Made by a program: the position numbers and the translations under genes. A stretch of DNA of 64,000 bases from an uncultured Acidobacteriota bacterium (lineage in GTDB: Bacteria; Acidobacteriota; Terriglobia; Acidiferrales; UBA7541), in the NCBI GenBank assembly GCA_963845465.1, contig CAWJSH010000009.1:270196-334195 (forward strand), in the 5' to 3' direction. Below, one piece after another: positions 1 to 62,730 of this stretch. Below the pieces are notes generated by a model that saw only the letters and a program-made list of their open reading frames with translations, was not told the DNA's origin and did no database searches. Numbering within the stretch: the stretch's first letter is position 1; each line of letters opens with the position of its first letter.

Positions 1-1698
1 CGCCGTGTACACGTCGCGATCCCAAATCGCGATGTCCGCATCTTTCCCGAGCTCGATCGATCCCACGGTGCCGTCCAAGAATAGTTGGTGCGCCGCCCAC
101 TCCGTGTACGAGCGAAGCGCAACGCGCGCATCGACCGACTCCGCCGTCCCAAACGGATGCGCTCCATACACGCCCTTCAAAGTTTCCCGCGCCACCGATG
201 CCCAAATCCCGTATCGCGCCGCAAACGGCGTCACAAAATAATCCGACCCGCCGCCCCACACGATCCCCCGCGTCAGCATCGTCTTCAACGGAATCAATCG
301 CGCCGCCCGCTGCGGACCAAACGTCCCGGCGTACGTGTCGCCGAGCCACCACATGAACGGCGCTTGCAACTCGGGATATCCCGCGTCGTATTGCTTCTGC
401 AGCGCCGCCATCGTGTCCAGCGCATGATCCGTCGGAATGTTCGAATGAATGATGCTGTGGCGCAGCCCGTGCGTCGGAGTCTCTTTCAGCACTTCAGCAT
501 ACGTATCGACCACCATATCGATCGCGCGATCGCCGACAGCATGCGTGCCTACGTGAATTCCCGCCTGGTGATACATGCGCACCAATTGTTTGTACGTATC
601 CACATCCATCGCCGGATAGCCCTTGTTGCCTTTATCGATCTCCGTCGATTTCACGTGCCAATCGTCGTAGAGCCACGCGGTGCGCCCGCCGCCGCTGCCA
701 TCCATGTAAAGTTTCCCGCCGCCCGAGAGCAGCAGGCCATCGCCGAGCGAGCGCGGCGGCAGCGGCAGCGCCTTGATGCGTGCCAGCGTCGCGCGACCCG
801 AGTCCATCGTCGTCCCGACGTCCCACAGCGTAAACACGCGCACTTTCAACTTGTTTTCGTCGAGCACGCGCTTGTACGCGTCCCAGGTGTGTGGCTGGAT
901 GTCGCCTTCCTTGATCGCGGTCATCCCCTCTGCGTGCAGCTCGTCGATGATGCGCAAAATCGCCGCATGCTCCTGTTCGGGCGTCACCGGGGGAATGAGA
1001 TTCGTGACCGCGAGCATCGCGTCCTCTTTGAGCACGCCGGTCGGTTTGCCTTCAGGGTCGCGATCGATCGTTCCTGCTTTTGGATTTTTTGTCGCGCGCG
1101 AAATGTGCGCGAGCTTCAGCGCCACGCTGTTCGCCACGCCGTAGTGTCCCGTCGTGTGCTGCAGCCAGACCGGATTTTTGGGAGTGACCTTATCCAGATC
1201 GGCCGCATGTACATAGCGCAGTTCAGCGAGCTTGCTTTCGTCCCAGCCGGTGCCTTGAATCCACTCGCCGGGTTTCGCCGTTTTTACGCGCTCCGCGATC
1301 TTTTGCACGACGTCCGCGATGCTCGTCGCGTCGCGCAGATTCACGTCGTTGAGCTCTTCGATCCCGCCATCGGCGAAATGCCCATGGCTGTCGATCAATC
1401 CGGGCGTGGCCGTTCGCCCGTGAAGATCGATGACCTTCGTGTTCGGGCCGATGTGCGTGCGAATTTCGGCGTTCGATCCGATGGCGAGAAATCTTCCGTC
1501 GAACCCGATGGCCACCGCTTCCACGACGGAGTCGTGCGGATCGACGGTCAATATCTTGCCGTCGACCAAAACGAGTTCAGCCGCCGGAACAGGCGCCGCA
1601 CCGTGCGCCGCAATCTTTTGCGGACGCTTCAGCGTCGCCATCCAAATGAGCGCACCGACAAAGATTGCCGCCAAGACAAAAAAGGAGAAGCCCTTCAC
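1..1698 (-). CDS. Amidohydrolase family 3 (YtcJ-like), with N-terminal signal/anchor; 3' end runs off the window
   Basis: Manual minus-strand translation gives VKGFSFFVLAAIFVGALIW..., GRTATPGLIDSHGHF (HxH metal motif), IDRDPEGKPTGVLKE, THAVGDRAID, GSIELGKDADIAIWD. It is missing from the ORF track because there is no stop in the window. Confidence 0.9.
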   Translation of the reverse strand, partial: MKGFSFFVLAAIFVGALIWMATLKRPQKIAAHGAAPVPAAELVLVDGKILTVDPHDSVVEAVAIGFDGRFLAIGSNAEIRTHIGPNTKVIDLHGRTATPGLIDSHGHFADGGIEELNDVNLRDATSIADVVQKIAERVKTAKPGEWIQGTGWDESKLAELRYVHAADLDKVTPKNPVWLQHTTGHYGVANSVALKLAHISRATKNPKAGTIDRDPEGKPTGVLKEDAMLAVTNLIPPVTPEQEHAAILRIIDELHAEGMTAIKEGDIQPHTWDAYKRVLDENKLKVRVFTLWDVGTTMDSGRATLARIKALPLPPRSLGDGLLLSGGGKLYMDGSGGGRTAWLYDDWHVKSTEIDKGNKGYPAMDVDTYKQLVRMYHQAGIHVGTHAVGDRAIDMVVDTYAEVLKETPTHGLRHSIIHSNIPTDHALDTMAALQKQYDAGYPELQAPFMWWLGDTYAGTFGPQRAARLIPLKTMLTRGIVWGGGSDYFVTPFAARYGIWASVARETLKGVYGAHPFGTAESVDARVALRSYTEWAAHQLFLDGTVGSIELGKDADIAIWDRDVYTA

Positions 1699-11818: not shown

Positions 11819-12160
11819 GTGGGTCTCCCGTGAAATCGTTATTCAGCAGTTCAGATGCGCGGTGGGGCAAATTGTTTCTGTGAATCTGAGCCGCTGCGAG
11901 GGTAATGGGCTCGCCGCATTGGAAGGTTGCGGCGTCGTTGCTGGCGCGTGAAGAAGGTGATTGGGTTCGCGGGGCTGTGGACTTCGCTTTGGATTCGCCT
12001 TCTGGGGGTATACCCCCTATGTTTTTGAAAGAGTGCGCAAGGCGTTTCGATTGAACAGGTTGCAGATCTACAGAAAACGGGAGTGTGGAAGTTGTTGAAA
12101 GGACGGGAGTAAGAGCGGGGCGTGGATGCGGTTTGAGTGGGAGGCGGGAGGTCATTTTGA

Positions 12161-12189
12161 AGCATAGCATGGAAAGTGTACTTTGTCAA
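12161..12189 (-). promoter_or_regulatory. sigma70-type promoter
   Basis: TTGACA-17 nt-TATGCT on the minus strand. Confidence 0.6.
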
Positions 12190-12406
12190 TAGCATTTAGC
12201 GAGTAGTACATTCGAATGGGGGTGAAATTGTTACGCGTTCGAATGGATAACGAAGAGAAAAGATAACGCAGAGGCGCGGAGGTCGCTGAGGAGCACGGAG
12301 AGCTGGCGGCCTTGCGAAAGACTTGAGGGGAAACCTTGCGGACATGGGGCGCAGCAGTGCTGCGCCCGTACGAAGATGGCGGGGTAAACCCGCCCCTACA
12401 AAACCA

Positions 12407-36114: not shown

Positions 36115-37548
36115 ATGATCCTCAAACAGTTCTACCTCGCCTGCCTCGCCCACGCCTCCTACCTCATCGGCGACGAACAAACCGGCGTCGCCGCCGTCGT
36201 CGACCCCCAGCGCGACATCGACCAATACATCGCCTTCGCCGCCGAGCACCACCTCCACATCAAGCACGTCTTCCTCACCCATCTCCACGCCGACTTCATC
36301 GCCGGCCACCTCGAGCTCCGCGATCGGGTCGGCGCCAAAATCTATCTGGGCGCCTCCGCCAAAGCGAAATACGCCTTCACTCCGTTAAAAGATGGAGAGG
36401 GAATCGAATTCGGCAAAGTCCGTCTGAGGGTCCTCGAAACTCCCGGCCACACGCCCGAATCAATCTCGATTCTCGTCTATGACCTGGCCGCGAGCGATTC
36501 AAAACCAAACGCCGTCCTTACCGGCGACACCCTCTTCATCGGCGATGTCGGCCGCCCCGACTTCCGCGCCGCCCTCGGTTGGTCCGCCACGCAACTCGGC
36601 GGCATGCTCTACGAATCCCTCCACAACAAACTTCTTCCGCTCCCCGACGCCAGCCTCGTCTATCCCGCTCACGGCGCCGGCTCGCTCTGCGGCAAAGCCA
36701 TCAGCAAAGAAACCGTCTCCACCATCGGCGAACAGCGCCGCGTCAACTACGCGCTCCAGCCGATGACCAAAGACGCCTTTATCCAGGTCGTCACCGCCGA
36801 TCAGCCCGAAGCTCCCGACTACTTCACCTACGACGCCGTCCTCAACAGCGAGGAGCGCCCCACGCTCGATCAAGCCCTCGAACAAGGCCTGAATCCGCTC
36901 CCACTCGATTCCGTCCTCGGTTTACAGTCCGCCGGCGCGCAAATCCTCGACACGCGCGATCCCGCCGAATTCGCCGCCGCTCATCTCAAAGGCAGCATCA
37001 ACATCGGTCTCGGCGGCCAATACGCCACTTGGGCCGGCACCATCCTCAATCGCGAGGATCCCATCGTCATCATCGCCGCTCCCGGCCGCGAAAAAGAATC
37101 CGCCGTCCGCCTCGGCCGCATCGGCTTCGACCACATCGTCGGCTACCTCCGCGACGGCCTCCGCAGCCTGGACTCTCGTCCCGACTTAGTCACGACCACC
37201 AAATCGTTCAGCCCGCAGTACGCCCTCGAAGCGATGGCTGGTTCAAAAACATCGCTCGACCCCAACGCCACGGTCGATCTGAACCCGCCGCTGGTGATCG
37301 ACGTCCGAAATCCCGGCGAACGCACCCGCAAATACATCGACAATAGCGAAAGCATCCCCCTCGCTCACCTCGTCGAGAACTCCGCCAAGCTCCCGCACGA
37401 CCGCGACATACTCGTCTACTGCGCCGGCGGCTATCGCTCCTCTATCGCCGCCAGCCTCCTTCAACGCTCCGGCTTCACAAAAGTCGCCGAAATCGCCGGC
37501 GGCCTAGCCGCATGGGAATCCGCCCACCTCCCCGTTCGAACTCCGTAG
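36115..37548 (+). CDS. MBL-fold hydrolase with tandem rhodanese domains (persulfide dioxygenase/sulfurtransferase-like)
   Basis: THLHADF, TPGHT, GDTLF, YPAHGAGSLCG; rhodanese motifs DTRDPAEFAAAHLKGS and VYCAGGYRS. Confidence 0.92.
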   Translation: MILKQFYLACLAHASYLIGDEQTGVAAVVDPQRDIDQYIAFAAEHHLHIKHVFLTHLHADFIAGHLELRDRVGAKIYLGASAKAKYAFTPLKDGEGIEFGKVRLRVLETPGHTPESISILVYDLAASDSKPNAVLTGDTLFIGDVGRPDFRAALGWSATQLGGMLYESLHNKLLPLPDASLVYPAHGAGSLCGKAISKETVSTIGEQRRVNYALQPMTKDAFIQVVTADQPEAPDYFTYDAVLNSEERPTLDQALEQGLNPLPLDSVLGLQSAGAQILDTRDPAEFAAAHLKGSINIGLGGQYATWAGTILNREDPIVIIAAPGREKESAVRLGRIGFDHIVGYLRDGLRSLDSRPDLVTTTKSFSPQYALEAMAGSKTSLDPNATVDLNPPLVIDVRNPGERTRKYIDNSESIPLAHLVENSAKLPHDRDILVYCAGGYRSSIAASLLQRSGFTKVAEIAGGLAAWESAHLPVRTP

Positions 37549-37574
37549 GTAGCACCGGCACTCCTGCTTGTGCT
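37549..37574. repeat. Repeat family F (GT(A/G)GCAC(A/C)GGCACTC(C/T)TGC(C/T)TGTGCT); second copy at 63481-63506
   Basis: Two near-identical 26-bp imperfect palindromes next to gene ends. Confidence 0.75.
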
Positions 37575-37894
37575 CCTTATCCCCACCCTTCACCGCCAAT
37601 TCGAACAGACACCTCCCCTCAAACTGCAAGTTCGAACAGACAGTTCTCTTCAATCACGATTTATTTGGAGTGCGGCGCTGCCGCGCCGCTTTTACAATCG
37701 CCGCAAGCTCTCACGACTTCCTCTAAGGCGCCCAAACCATGTCGCGCCATAAGCCACTGTCATTCCGACCGAGCAAGCCGACGCTTTTTCTTCGCGTTCG
37801 CTTCCTGCGAACGCGTCGGCCTTGCGCAGCCGAGGAATCTCTCTTCGATGTATCGCGGCAGCCTCGACACCGAGCGCCCACCCGGGAAAACCAC

Positions 37895-37923
37895 TTGACA
37901 AACGTTATCAAATAAGGTAATAT
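37895..37923 (+). promoter_or_regulatory. sigma70-type promoter with no downstream plus-strand gene
   Basis: TTGACA-17 nt-TAATAT. Confidence 0.55.
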
Positions 37924-38091
37924 GCCGCTTGTAGAAACTCGCGCCCAAGCGCTTCCTAGACAACAACTCCATTAGAATCACATCCTTAGCAACTCAGCGC
38001 GCATAACCGCTTTATTTTCATATCCTTAGGAAAAGCACCCGGGGGGGTGGGCAGCGGCCCAACCTAAATTCCCAAAATGAAACTCGACCGG

Positions 38092-39869
38092 CTACCGCAA
38101 GCGAGAGTCGATCTTCGCCACGTAAACTCCATAAGGCTCGAGACTTATCGTCGCCGTATCTCCCGGCGAAGCTTTCGCCCCGACAGCAATTAAAGTCGCT
38201 GCCCTCGCCGAAGGCGCCGCAACCTTTCCAAGCTCCAGCTTCACGCTCTGCGCCGATTCCGACATATTCAGCGCCACGATCACAGTCTGTCCGCCGAAGT
38301 CTTGCCGCGCAAACGCCAGCACGTTCGGATCGTTGCCATTCAACTCGACGTACTTGCCTTCGCGCAACGCCGGTTCGCTCGCCGCGCAGCGCAATGATCT
38401 TCCGATACAAACTCAAAATCGAGTTCGGATCTGTTGCTCTCCGTCGCAACATTGTGCGTCTTAAAATTCGGCGCCACCGGCAACCACGGCTTCCCGGTTG
38501 TAAATCCCGCATTCGCGGCATCGCTCCACTGCATCGGCGTCCGCTCGCCGTCGCGCCCAATCTCCTTCGGCCAGCCACGCCGCCCCTGAGGATCCTGCAC
38601 ATCCTCTTTGCGCTTCGGATCGTTGTTCTCCATGCCGATCTCTTCGCCGTAATACATGATCGGCGTGCCGCGCAGCAGCATGTACATCGTCGCGGCCAGC
38701 TTCGCGATCTGATCGTTGTTCTTGCCGTCGCCCCAGCGCGTGTACGAACGCACGATGTCGTGATTGCTGATCACAAAAACCGGCCAGCCGCCCGCATCTT
38801 CCAGCGCCGTGATGTGCTCGCGAAATTGCGGCGCCGAAAGTTTCGGAAACTGCGTGAGCATCAGATCCATCGGCATTTGCAGCTCGTCATTTTTTTCGCC
38901 GTAGTAATCGCGAAGCTCCGACACGTTCGCCGTCCACGTTTCGCCGATCAGCACCGCATTGTATTCGTCGGCCAGCTTGCGCATATCGCGCATCACGTCG
39001 TGAACTTCCGGCAGCTTCTTGTTGTAAATCTCGTGCTCGTTCGGAAATCCGAATTTATCCAGCCCCGGCAGCAGCGGATTGTCTTTCAGATCGGGATCTT
39101 CAAACAGCGTATCGACCGCATCGAGCCGGAATCCCGCCACGCCGCGCTTGTACCAGAAGCGCATGCAATCCAGCATCGCCTTGCGCACTTCCGGATTGCG
39201 CCAGTTCAAATCAGGCTGCTGCGCGTAGAAATAGTGGTAGTAATACTGTCCCGTCGTCGGATCGAGAGTCCACGTCGATCCGCCAAACGTCGAAGTCCAG
39301 TTGTTTGGCGGTTTCCCGTCTTTGCCGTCGCGCCAGATGTACCAGTCGCGCTTCGGATTCGTCTTCGACGATTTCGATTCCAGAAACCATTTGTGCTGAT
39401 CCGAAGTGTGATTCGGCACGAAGTCGAGAATGATTTTGATGTTGTGCGCTTTGGCTTTCGCAACAAGTTCATCAAAGTCGGCGAGCGTCCCATACATCGG
39501 ATCGATTGCTTCATAGTCCGAAACGTCGTAACCGAAATCCACCTGCGGAGAAGGGAAGCACGGCGTTATCCAGATGGCATCGACGCCGAGATGCTGCAAA
39601 TAATCGAGCTTCGACGTGATGCCTTTCAAATCTCCGACGCCGTCGCCGTTGCTGTCCGCAAAACTCCGCGGATAAATCTCATAAAACACCGCGTGGTTGA
39701 ACCATTCGTGCCCCGCGGCATCCTTCGTGCCTTTCGCTTGCGCGCCTGCGTCCTGCTTCTGCCCGGATACAGCGGCATCTTTCTTCTGTTCTTCTTGCGC
39801 GCCGCCCCGCGGCGTAAGAGCACACATAGCGATCACCAATATTCCCGCGAGGACCCAGGCCTTGGTCAT
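38092..39869 (-). CDS. Exported GH13 alpha-glucosidase (oligo-1,6-glucosidase/MalL-like), frameshift ~38390
   Basis: Signal peptide MTKAWVLAGILVIAMCAL; YEIYPRSF, DFVPNHTSDQH, QPDLNW, GFRLDAV, IGETW, SNHD, RDGERTPMQW. Confidence 0.93.
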
Positions 39870-39931
39870 GGAAGCCTCCTCATCGGTCAAGTTCAACGAC
39901 GGGCCGAATGCAATTACACCATCAGCTTGTC

Positions 39932-42547
39932 TTACTTTCGGCTGTTTGAAAAATGCAGCACGATCTTTCGATGCGCGTACTCGCCGGAATTCTCCGCCGG
40001 AAACGCGATTTTGATTTTTTCTTCGCCGAGCTTCGTTGCGATGCGATCGCCGCCTTCGACCGAAGCCAGCACGCTTTGCCCCGACATCAAGCTTTTGCCG
40101 TTGTCGAAGACGCCGATTTCGTACTCGCGGCCGCCTCTGCCGGCAACGTCGAGCGTCAGCGTATCGCGTGCCGCGCTCCACGTTTGCGACACGATACGCA
40201 GTCCTTCACTCGGGCTCCCCAGCGGCGGCAACGTCGCGTCATAGGCAACGCCGATGTTGTCGCGCAGCAAAATCGTGATGACCGCTTTGCTCGAACCCTT
40301 CGTCTGAATCTCGACATGCTGATCGTCGTCGTTCGCCGTGACGTGAAACGGAATCGCTCTGCGACTCGCGGTCGGCCCCGAAGTCACGGAAGCAACGCGC
40401 GCGCGCAAACTGATCGCTGGCTTGAAGACAATGTTGCAAGGCGCGCTGCCGGCGCACTCCGTCTCCAGGACGATCGCTCCTGGCTTCGCGGTGTACGTCA
40501 GGTTCAGCCGCGAATCTCCGGCGCGAATGTTGCGCACAGAGAACGAACTCCAATCGGCAGGAACGTGAGGCGAAAACGTCACGGTGTTCGTCTTCGCGTC
40601 GCTCGAAAGTCCAAGCATTCCGCGCAGAATCGGACTGACCACCATCGCCGCCGACCAGATCTGATGCGGCGAACTCGTCGAGAGAGGTTCGTACACATCG
40701 CCCGACAAAACCTCGGTCACGTGTCCGAGCGAGCCATCAAGCGCGAGCAGCGCATTCGCTCGCAAATTCTCGTAAGCGGGAATCGCGCGGTGATACCGAT
40801 ACTCGCCGACCGACGCCCAGCCCGTGAAAAGCGGCCACACCGAGCCGAAGTGATATCCGCCGCCGCTGAAGCGCGGCGCGCGGTCCGAAATAATGCGCAT
40901 GCCCCAATCGCTCAGATGATCCGAATCCGCGAGCTGCGTGATCGTCGCCGCCGCGTTGTGCTCGTCGAGCAACCCGAACCACATCGGCACCGTCGCGAGC
41001 ACGCTAAGTTCATCCACCGGCTTGCCTTCGCGATCGAGCGCGAACGCATAGCGATTCTTCTCGGGCAGCCAGAACGCCTTTTCGATCAGCGGTTGATGCT
41101 GATCGAATTCCTGCCGCAACGGCCCGCTCAAATCGCCGTGGCCCGTCGCGTCAGCAAGATTCGCAAGCGCGCCGAGCGCGACCGCGCCGAGCCCCGTCTG
41201 ATACAGCTCCGTTTTCACCGGCAGCAACGGTCCGCCTTCGACCCAGCCATGCCCGATGCCGAAATTCTGCGGAAATCCTTGCGCGTCGTACGTCGATTGC
41301 AAAAATTGATACGCCTTCCACAAGCTGTCCCATTTTTGTTTCGCGAAATCGACGTCGCCGCTCTGCACGACGTAATCATTCGTCGCGATGATGTAAAGCG
41401 GCGTCGCATCGGCCGACGCATAGCCGTACTGAAATTTCTTGAACCAATCGACCAGGCTCGCCGTCTGCGAAATTTCGTGTGGGATTTTCCCGTCGTCGCG
41501 CTGAAATTTGCTGACGAAATCGATTGCCGTTCGCGTGTCGGCAAAATCCCCGACGGAATTCAGCGCGAATGAAGTCCACATCGAATCGCGCCCAAAAAAC
41601 CACGCATATCCCGGCCGCGCGCTTTCTCCTGAGGTTCGATAGCCCGCGACCAGTCCGGTGCCGAGATACGGATTCGCCACCATGCCTTGCAACACGCTGA
41701 CGCGCGACCAGTCATACGCTTGCTGCAACTGCTCGTCTGGAAGCGAAACGCTGACTGTGTCTTGCAGATAGTCTTCGTAATATTTCGCGGACTCTTGCTG
41801 AAGCTCTTCGTGGTCCTGGAGCAAGTGTAGATACGTTGCTTCTGCTTCCGCATGCCCGTTCATCGAGCCGGAAATCACGACCAGCTTCTGATCTTTGCCC
41901 TTGTTCGTGACACCAAGGCGAATCGTGTTCGTCTGGGAATCGAAATAGTTTGTGTCGAACTCGAGTCCCGGATCGCCAGCCGCCGTCGGCGACCCGACGA
42001 GCCCGACAAATTTGCGTGTCTCTTCTCCCAACGCGAATGCGTGCAGATTTTTGTCCCAATCGATGAACGTGCCGCCGATCGCCGCCGGCCATTCGAGTTG
42101 AAAATCCCTGATGAAGCGCGCTTCGATTTCCAGCGGTTGCTCGGTCTGAATATCGAACGAAATCACCGCGCCTTGTTCTTTGACCGGAACAAAAAACGTC
42201 TCGCGGACGGTGAACGTATCGCTGCTGTAGACGATCGTCGCCGATTCCGGACGAACAATGATCGTCCGCGCCAGAACCTCGGCAGGAATCGCGTGATCGC
42301 TTTCGTGAAATATCAATCGAAAATCACGCAGCAGTTTCAGCGGATAAATCCACGCTTCCATCTGCCCCGATTCATTCCCAAAAAGCGCCGCTCGCGTGCC
42401 CGTCACGGGCAGAAACTCCCAAGGGCGAATTGGCCGCGAAAGCTCGAGTGAGCGCGGACCGGTCGGAGCCTCTTGTGCCGTCGATGAAGCCGCAAAAATC
42501 ATGAGCGCAGCGATGGCGACAAGGCAAAAACGCGCGTGGAATCGCAT
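39932..42547 (-). CDS. Exported amylo-alpha-1,6-glucosidase-like (alpha/alpha)6 glycoside hydrolase
   Basis: Signal peptide MRFHARFCLVAIAALMIFAASS; AWFFGRDS, GKIPHEI, ADATPLY, GYHFGSVWPLFTG, QIWSAA. Confidence 0.8.
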   Translation of the reverse strand: MRFHARFCLVAIAALMIFAASSTAQEAPTGPRSLELSRPIRPWEFLPVTGTRAALFGNESGQMEAWIYPLKLLRDFRLIFHESDHAIPAEVLARTIIVRPESATIVYSSDTFTVRETFFVPVKEQGAVISFDIQTEQPLEIEARFIRDFQLEWPAAIGGTFIDWDKNLHAFALGEETRKFVGLVGSPTAAGDPGLEFDTNYFDSQTNTIRLGVTNKGKDQKLVVISGSMNGHAEAEATYLHLLQDHEELQQESAKYYEDYLQDTVSVSLPDEQLQQAYDWSRVSVLQGMVANPYLGTGLVAGYRTSGESARPGYAWFFGRDSMWTSFALNSVGDFADTRTAIDFVSKFQRDDGKIPHEISQTASLVDWFKKFQYGYASADATPLYIIATNDYVVQSGDVDFAKQKWDSLWKAYQFLQSTYDAQGFPQNFGIGHGWVEGGPLLPVKTELYQTGLGAVALGALANLADATGHGDLSGPLRQEFDQHQPLIEKAFWLPEKNRYAFALDREGKPVDELSVLATVPMWFGLLDEHNAAATITQLADSDHLSDWGMRIISDRAPRFSGGGYHFGSVWPLFTGWASVGEYRYHRAIPAYENLRANALLALDGSLGHVTEVLSGDVYEPLSTSSPHQIWSAAMVVSPILRGMLGLSSDAKTNTVTFSPHVPADWSSFSVRNIRAGDSRLNLTYTAKPGAIVLETECAGSAPCNIVFKPAISLRARVASVTSGPTASRRAIPFHVTANDDDQHVEIQTKGSSKAVITILLRDNIGVAYDATLPPLGSPSEGLRIVSQTWSAARDTLTLDVAGRGGREYEIGVFDNGKSLMSGQSVLASVEGGDRIATKLGEEKIKIAFPAENSGEYAHRKIVLHFSNSRK

Positions 42548-62298: not shown

Positions 62299-62307
62299 TG
62301 TTATAAT
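62299..62307 (+). promoter_or_regulatory. Extended -10 promoter with no downstream plus-strand gene
   Basis: Perfect TGnTATAAT. Confidence 0.45.
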
Positions 62308-62730
62308 GATGCTGTAGAAAGCTGCGCCTGCCGGAACTTCCGATTCCCCCAAAATCCTTGGTTTTTGAATCGTTCGCAAACATCGATTTGCAAATCTCCA
62401 CCGGCTTCACGAACCGACCCACCCACTACCAAAATAGCAGGAGCACCGTGTGTCCAAAGAGTTAACATCGCCCGCAGGGTCGCAGAATTTCTCCGGCTCG
62501 CCGCGCAACTCATTCGTGTAAGCCCTTTAGAATCTGCACTTGCAAATGTATATGAAAACAAACAACTTCAAACCCAGCAGAATCCGCACTTACGCGAAAC
62601 CCGGGGGGTACCCCGGCTCCTTTCGCCAACCCGCAACCCGTCAATCTTGCTCCATCCCAAACGAAAAGCGCGTCGGCCGAAACCGACGCGCCCAAAGCAG
62701 TTTTGATAGATCGTGTAAAACCCGCTGAAC

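Follow-up and report, generated by a model that had tools for sequence, protein, structure and literature searches.

A dispersed superfamily of promoter-led intergenic elements in an uncultured acidobacterium, most likely a very large set of small-RNA genes

What does a strong promoter transcribe when no gene follows it? The question is raised by a sigma-70-type promoter in the window, the whole 64,000-nt stretch of an uncultured Acidobacteriota genome that was analysed here, where it is the sole promoter-like site within positions 37000-38600 (0.4 expected). A sequence-only reading of this DNA had pointed out that no plus-strand gene lies 3' of the TAATAT and that the 3' end of a GH13 gene faces the promoter. 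Both statements were borne out at this locus, hereafter element B: the minus-strand C-terminal ORF of the GH13 alpha-amylase stops at 38092-38094, and the 5' neighbour of B, at 36115-37545 on the plus strand, is a metallo-beta-lactamase/rhodanese protein (gene calls are from a crude codon-usage caller). The two sub-repeats described in that reading are also real, being 71% identical and 40 nt apart, and so is the AAA..GGGGG end. The coordinates are collected in Table 1. The GH13 gene itself (38095-40181, minus strand) is split over two frames, with a catalytic-domain ORF at 38343-40181 and a Malt_amylase_C ORF at 38095-38394 that overlap by ~50 nt, a split that a frameshift, pseudogene formation or an assembly error could explain.

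Table 1. Positions in the window of the parts of element B and of the related elements A and C.
Feature	Positions	Strand	Remarks
Sigma-70-type promoter TTGACA-17-TAATAT	37895-37923	+	TTGACA 37895-37900, 17-nt spacer, TAATAT 37918-37923; consensus score 10/12; orthologous locus of the sister species G001 has TTGACG-17-TACAGT
Predicted transcript 5' end GTAGAAACTCGCGCC	37931-37945	+	start inferred from distance to -10
T1 repeated core, 91 nt	37962-38052	+	unit 1, variable spacer, unit 2, A-run, C/G-run; nhmmer E = 1.5e-17
Unit 1: lead AACTCC and box TTAGAATCACATCCTT (37972-37987)	37965-37992	+	
Unit 2: lead AACCGC and degenerate box TTATTTTCATATCCTT (38012-38027)	38005-38032	+	
A-run (38031-38034) and C/G-run CCCGGGGGGGTGGG (38038-38051)	38031-38051	+	the AAA..GGGGG end, in full AAAAGCACCCGGGGGGGTGGG; intrinsic-terminator-like only on the minus strand
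TTCCCAAAATGAAAC, one mismatch from mini-palindrome TCCCAAAAYGGAAC	38069-38083	+	TCCCAAAAYGGAAC trails the 3' hairpin in many sister-family copies
Two TTCGAA palindromes (37600-37605, 37631-37636) within GTTCGAACAGACA repeats	37600-37636	+	unit membership uncertain
Element A (T2)	11995-12243	-	TTCGAA 12211-12216 and 12238-12243; promoter 12161-12189; core 11995-12110, ending GGGGGTATACCCCC
Element C (T3)	62299-62610	+	extended -10 TGTTATAAT 62299-62307; GTAGAAAGCTGCGCC 62314-62328; core 62520-62610

A BLAST search with 37895-38060 against the window's own genome (G000, 5.73 Mb, 9 contigs) returned 30 further matches, all confined to ~66-166 of the query, with a best E of 7e-19, and a profile of the 91-nt core retrieved 51 copies including B at E < 1e-9, on all nine contigs. 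The similarity is thus well beyond that of shuffled AT-rich DNA, and B belongs to a dispersed family, which we call T1. The repeated part of B is the core alone; the promoter and the 38 nt that follow it lie outside. The T1 consensus reads YRYAAC-YCC-YTT-AGAATCACAYYCTT-RC and, after ~14 variable nt, the same YRYAAC-YCC-YTT-AGAATCACAYYCTT-RC unit again, and its 3' part consists of AAAA(A)C, an optional C-run and G5-7 (A/T) G3-5. The units come in pairs and almost never singly. With up to 2 mismatches allowed, the 16-nt box occurs 92 times within the families and once outside them in the whole genome. The YY pair of the T1 boxes is TC, CT or TT, and CC was found in 0/102 where ~12 would be expected.

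The elements at 11995-12189 and 62299-62616 had been put forward as siblings of B with a common ACAACT(T/C)C core, a claim that did not survive the profile search: the B family profile gives E > 1 for both, and the word stands at non-equivalent positions in the three families, so that it is not a conserved core. Searches seeded from elements A and C led to two sister families, with T3 membership filtered by a simple pattern. T2 has 55 copies, including element A, with boxes CTTSCRCACTCYY...AAAA and CTTGCGCACTCTTTGAAAAAC followed by a GGGGGTATACCCC hairpin and often then by TCCCAAAAYGGAAC, and T3 has ~42 copies, including element C, with the box YTTAGAATCYGCACTTRC twice and then AAAAC and a G-run. 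T3 has AAC-YCC-YTTAGAATC in common with T1 and GCACT(C)TT in common with T2, and this chained similarity, together with the common layout, unites the three in one superfamily of ~150 copies per genome. A 5' module of the GTAGAAACTCGCGCC type, located after the -10 in element C as in B, is also present in other copies of all three families. The TCCC/GGGA stem of the mini-palindrome TCCCAAAAYGGAAC is conserved and its A/T-rich centre varies in sequence; the palindrome stands 6-9 nt past the 3' hairpin in 23/55 T2 copies, always on the same strand, and its reading as a sigma-54 or ECF promoter was rejected, as the spacing to any -12/-10 element, judged by eye only, is inconsistent. Element A is adjoined by a GATAACGCAGAGGCGCGGAGG-type repeat (12255-12300) that fills other intergenic regions too.

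The promoter is the feature that gives these elements a direction. For each copy the best sigma-70-like site was scored in the 200 nt on each side and strand (200-250 nt upstream overall), with a threshold of at least 9/12 and scores that count consensus matches only. A site upstream on the same strand, pointing into the element, was found for 25/51 T1 copies, as against 0/51, 2/51 and 0/51 in the other three configurations and 92 of 2576 random 200-nt intergenic stretches (3.6%; Fisher p = 1e-21). The corresponding numbers are 44/55 for T2 and 15/42 for T3 (0-4 in the other orientations), and the T1 link recurs in the sister species of the same genus, G001 (18/51), and in other MAGs (34/105). 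Promoter enrichment upstream of the family copies is therefore real and all but confined to one orientation, although about half of T1 has no recognisable promoter. The distance from the -10 to the T1 core ranges from 25 to 160 nt, and the intervening sequence is not conserved.

These promoters also differ from the others of the genome. Intergenic matches to TTGACN-16..18-TAnnnT number 240 in G000, of which 66 lead into T1-T3; a TGn extended -10 is present in 54/66 of these and in 23/174 of the others, and a TTCGAA palindrome lies within 120 nt upstream of the -35 in 41/66 (62%) as against 10/174 (p = 1e-19), with 25/32 against 6/73 in other MAGs. The palindrome, of consensus cTCATTCGAAtg (also written TCATTCGAATGA), is commonest 20-29 nt upstream of the -35, is often present in 2-3 copies ~30 nt apart, and looks like the operator or activator site of a putative regulator. 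The common promoter class and the palindrome suggest a single regulon with one shared regulator. Element A has two TTCGAA palindromes at the normal distance from its -35. At B, TTCGAA is found only at 37535, 37600 and 37631, ~260-360 nt upstream. Two unrelated repeats intervene, of which one is absent from G001, and the 37600/37631 pair, ~260-295 nt upstream, may be a displaced copy of the usual upstream palindrome.

The first of these intervening sequences, 37655-37750, comprises ~95 nt that are present in G000 and absent from the same place in G001; it contains a hairpin, GGAGTGCGGCGCTGCCGCGCCGC, whose motif also adjoins other elements in the genome, and it is thus a separate small dispersed repeat. 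The second, 37757-37850, is a further dispersed repeat, GTCATTCCGACCG...GAGGAATCTCTCTTCG, which is conserved in G001. Two other groups of promoters came to light in G000. Several genes for paralogous Ser/Thr protein kinases have a consensus promoter 6-9 nt ahead of their ATG (C1:232437, C1:235558, C7:485263, C7:416406 and others), a leaderless layout, and three look-alike mini-units of promoter and terminator, at C7:933612(-), C7:504085(-) and C9:151393(+), consist of TTGACAAAGGGTAYC...TGTTAT and then a GGCCCGGCGAATTGCCGGGCC hairpin. These mini-units are unrelated to T1-T3 and form a candidate conventional small-RNA family.

Comparison between species indicates which parts of the element are held by selection. 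G001, in which the GH13 gene is 88% identical, has 55 T1 copies that are mostly syntenic with those of G000, and its B locus retains the promoter, the 5' stretch, both units, the G-run and the 3' palindrome. In a further genome, G010 (84% identical), the core at the B locus has no promoter and lies 65 nt past a co-directional gene, and in more distant species of the genus the core is absent from this locus. Over 36 orthologous G000-G001 pairs, identity was 0.89 in the -35, 0.87-0.88 in the boxes and 0.78-0.80 in the unit leads; it was about 0.70 in the promoter spacer, the -10 and the first 15 transcribed nt, 0.72 in the A-run, 0.70 in the C/G-run, 0.62 in the inter-box spacer, 0.57 in the 5' variable region and 0.56-0.62 in the flanks. 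The excess of the -35 and the boxes over the sequence between and around them points to selection on promoter and boxes and not on the intervening sequence. The G-run is retained between orthologues and the C-run is not. One copy is present in G001 only, with ~190 nt extra relative to G000 and ragged borders inside other repeats.

With a sequence-only covariance model, T1 was detected in 54/121 genomes and in 15/29 genera of the same taxonomic family, and in a class-wide sample 15/151 genomes matched, 12 of them (including G000) from the same taxonomic family and 3, from one other family, weakly. Exact-pattern matches were almost all to MAGs named Candidatus Acidoferrum, Acidiferrales, 'gp2' or uncultured Acidobacteriota, and all T1 carriers are uncultured MAGs.

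The sequence-only reading could not assign these elements to any known class, and the covariance models of Rfam 15 likewise gave no match at the gathering score in the whole window. The best hits to 37500-38200 were RT-19 at 19 bits (cut-off 78.3) and Hairpin-meta1 at 17 (cut-off 40), and nothing at E <= 0.1 was obtained within 500 nt of 40 other copies. A literature search on the box sequence and on acidobacterial repeat or small-RNA families found nothing relevant. RNAalifold returned no consensus structure on either strand of T1, T2 or T3, and the predicted RNA of B folds like its shuffles (z = +0.37 for the plus and +0.05 for the minus strand). Several specific candidates were rejected: an AGAAT-CAC-AYYCT mini-hairpin is paired in 79.6% of cells as against 79.4% in shuffles, with 0 compensatory changes; a TTGC/GCAA inter-unit helix shows no covariation; GGA is present in just 43/102 boxes, which argues against a CsrA-type GGA sponge on the minus strand; and a chromosome-polarity signal finds no link to GC skew or replication strand. 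No site elsewhere in the genome is complementary to the box and could serve as a long antisense target, and Hfq gave only a sub-threshold match in G000.

We considered whether the elements are leaderless genes for small proteins, with transcripts that start at a GUG/AUG 5-7 nt past the -10 and are translated through the boxes. This RTG layout occurs in 14/25 promoter-led T1 copies, and in 14/14 of them the frame stays open from one end of the core to the other although spacer lengths differ, as it does in 8/9 copies of G001 and 15/19 of other MAGs; Acidobacteria do use leaderless genes (PMC3160421). Against this, codon periodicity is absent from the substitutions that separate orthologues (241/240/261 outside the core, 78/56/57 inside), orthologues differ by indels of 1, 2, 5 and 8 nt, the units, being 40 nt apart, would fall into two different frames, codons that end in A are invariant although rare, the ORFs end at non-conserved positions, and B itself has stops in all three frames. 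We thus rejected a protein-coding reading and find leaderless genes, already disfavoured, scarcely credible. In some copies a long ORF runs through the element because it happens to be in frame with a genuine gene downstream (der, thiolase, amine oxidase).

The 3' end of the elements looks in the other direction. The A-run is always 5' of the G-rich or GC hairpin and T-runs after the hairpin are rare (in T2, a mean of 4.8 A before and 1.1 T after), and in B a terminator scan calls the site on the minus strand only. The hairpin therefore looks like an intrinsic terminator of the opposite strand, for B that of the GH13 gene, and no canonical terminator is present at the end of the plus-strand RNA. 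With respect to the neighbouring genes, the four possible orientation classes hold 38, 39, 27 and 44 of 148 copies, and the elements are independent of gene direction; convergent intergenic regions are over-represented, at 44/148 (30%) as against 17% of intergenic regions, and in these the median distance from the 3' end of the element to the stop of the convergent neighbour is 43-133 nt. Other copies lie in leaders. Tandem T1 and T3 cores (G000 C7:1165269-1165490) occupy a ~400-nt leader between a consensus promoter and the gene of the der (engA) GTPase, and similar element-bearing leaders precede thiolase, amine-oxidase and DUF169 genes.

Such an arrangement could be that of a cis-acting elongation or termination module. 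Its core, poor in G and rich in C, would load Rho, or its CUCUU-type motifs would bring in Nus factors in the manner of boxA, and together with the hairpin it would punctuate transcription at gene ends and in leaders. The core is indeed 30% C and 13% G and unstructured, the A-run and GC hairpin are terminator-like for a convergent gene whose stop is close by, and some copies do lie in the long 5' leaders of der, thiolase and amine-oxidase genes. In the elements, as in the boxA of rrn operons and lambda, an A-rich stretch comes after a pyrimidine motif of the CUCUU(U) type, within RNA that is strongly transcribed (for the elements, by prediction) and not translated, and the T2 box CACTCTTTGAAAAAC matches the genome's own rrn boxA, GCTCTTTGACAAC, at 11/13 positions. 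The likeness is weak in T3 and in B's own family, T1, where nothing in boxA or rut sites corresponds to the best-conserved part of the box, TTAGAATCAC; B has ATATCCTTAGGAAAAGC, which is only loosely similar to the TGCTCTTTGACAAC of the rrn leader. Moreover, the orientation of the elements relative to flanking genes is random, and a dedicated strong promoter placed right before a terminator and facing the 3' end of a gene, as in B, would make no sense for a pure terminator. We consider a cis-acting module quite improbable.

The main rival to transcribed units is a dispersed repeat that acts as DNA, of the kind of REP/BIME, BOX or Correia elements, in which the boxes would bind a nucleoid protein, an IHF-like factor or a recombinase; the elements would then be selfish or structural DNA, and promoters and hairpin would have only cis effects on the neighbours. 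Conservation is limited to primary sequence, a promoter is missing from half of the copies, the elements favour convergent intergenic regions as described above, and the single difference in presence between G000 and G001 would also suit such an element. The consensus of E. coli IHF is WATCARNNNNTTR, and the T1 box AATCACAYYCTTR agrees with it at 12/13 positions; the IHF-like spacing is not kept in T2 and T3. Strictly one-way promoters and the joint conservation of -35 and boxes are not expected of a pure DNA site. Neither are there terminal inverted repeats, the only inverted repeat in B being a 10-nt pair, CCCACCCGGG/CCCGGGGGGG, nor is an inverted G-run enriched upstream: a C-run precedes the -35 in 6/25 promoter-led T1 copies and is found in 18% of intergenic 70-mers. 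Copy number and positions are stable between species, and no link to transposases other than RAYT was found. The suggestion of the sequence-only reading that these might be mobile units accordingly found no support, as the copies lack terminal inverted repeats, are mostly syntenic between species and give no sign of mobility.

Comparison with the known repeats leads to the same distinctions. Like T1-T3, REP/BIME of Enterobacteria and BOX of Streptococcus pneumoniae are non-coding elements of modular build that occupy intergenic regions in tens to hundreds of copies, often between convergent genes, and the internal units of BOX vary in number. A REP is a GC-rich palindromic hairpin, and REPs occur in inverted pairs and are tied to a RAYT transposase, whereas the T1 units are direct repeats with a 5-bp palindrome that has no covariation support; we know of no promoter association described for REPs. 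The Correia elements (NEMIS) of Neisseria come closest, with >100 dispersed intergenic copies of 100-200 nt and strong sigma-70-like promoters; they carry an IHF site as well and affect the transcripts of their neighbours (PMC10969869). Correia elements are, however, MITEs with terminal inverted repeats, target duplications and promoters that face outward, while T1-T3 have no inverted termini, have internal direct repeats, are syntenic between species, and have their promoter outside the core, at a variable distance (25-160 nt) and always pointing into it. A purely DNA-level role seems to us rather unlikely.

We observed a family, a promoter link of fixed orientation, conservation that singles out promoter and boxes, and neither a fold nor a coding signal. 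That the promoters point one way, that they are conserved jointly with the boxes and that the elements are indifferent to neighbouring genes all suggest small autonomous transcription units, and on this evidence T1 and its sisters are most probably small RNA genes, forming a very large family not described before. We put at roughly 0.5 the probability that B is transcribed independently as a small non-coding unit, which in practice would be a small-RNA gene of a superfamily of ~150 units. The proposal of the sequence-only reading, a family of independently transcribed small RNAs, thus stands in so far as the family is solid and many of its copies are promoter-led, and has to be amended in that there are three sister families and not one; transcription is predicted.

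The transcript itself, its 3' end and its partner we infer as follows. From a strong sigma-70 promoter, distinguished family-wide by a TGn extended -10 and an upstream TCATTCGAATGA palindrome, the putative site of one shared regulator, a G-poor and weakly structured RNA of ~125-160 nt would be made. Its working parts would be the two copies of the 26-nt box AAC-YCC-YTT-AGAATCACAYYCTT-RC, followed by the A-run and the G-rich or GC-hairpin end. The boxes would remain unpaired and be recognised by a protein specific for their sequence or through short pairing with Shine-Dalgarno-like, purine-rich stretches; as decoys or regulators, the RNAs would act in trans. At the 3' end, the hairpin and the A-run before it would serve mainly to stop transcription from the convergent neighbour, which at B is the GH13 gene.

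A precedent for part of this scheme is the alpha-r14 family (NfeR1) of rhizobia, which carries three CCUCCUCCC anti-Shine-Dalgarno motifs and, like the units predicted here, combines a regulated promoter of its own with a short RNA, an ultraconserved motif repeated amid a divergent rest and several paralogues per genome (PMC10746234). It differs in that its motifs lie in the loops of three conserved hairpins, its terminator is normal and its copies are few, whereas T1 has no conserved fold, a 26-nt motif, 50-150 copies and a 3' end that is not a plus-strand terminator. The T1/T3 unit lead ACUCCUUU and the box AAUCACAUCCUU resemble the 3' end of the genome's 16S rRNA, CCUCCUUU (tail GGAUCACCUCCUUU), and this likeness would fit either anti-Shine-Dalgarno-type pairing, as in alpha-r14/NfeR1 (PMC10746234), or mimicry of the 16S tail.

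Some observations weigh against small RNAs. Half of the T1 copies have no promoter, and neither has the core at the B locus of G010; there is no canonical plus-strand terminator and no long complementary target, and Hfq is matched only below threshold. Conserved sequence without structure suits a protein site on the DNA equally well. To our knowledge, ~150 paralogous small-RNA genes in one genome would be unprecedented. A bolder version of the small-RNA reading, in which ~150 unstructured 'box RNAs' per genome, transcribed co-ordinately and at a high level, would be a new class of abundant regulatory RNA and, switched by one TCATTCGAATGA-reading regulator, would mimic or decoy the 16S 3' tail or boxA and so globally tune translation or elongation via more than a quarter of the consensus promoters, we regard as unlikely.

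If these elements were instead to act at the DNA level, they would be dispersed repeats of a new type, linked to promoters and devoid of inverted termini. If the small-RNA reading is true, more than a quarter (66/240) of the best intergenic sigma-70 promoters of this genome would drive short non-coding units of three related families and not proteins, tRNAs or rRNA, and few known small-RNA regulons would equal the superfamily in size. The elements are carried by uncultured bacteria that are widespread in soil and whose non-coding RNAs have hardly been described; a defined box and operator would be usable for pull-down and reporter work, and they would offer a route to annotating hundreds of "empty" intergenic regions in Acidobacteriota MAGs.
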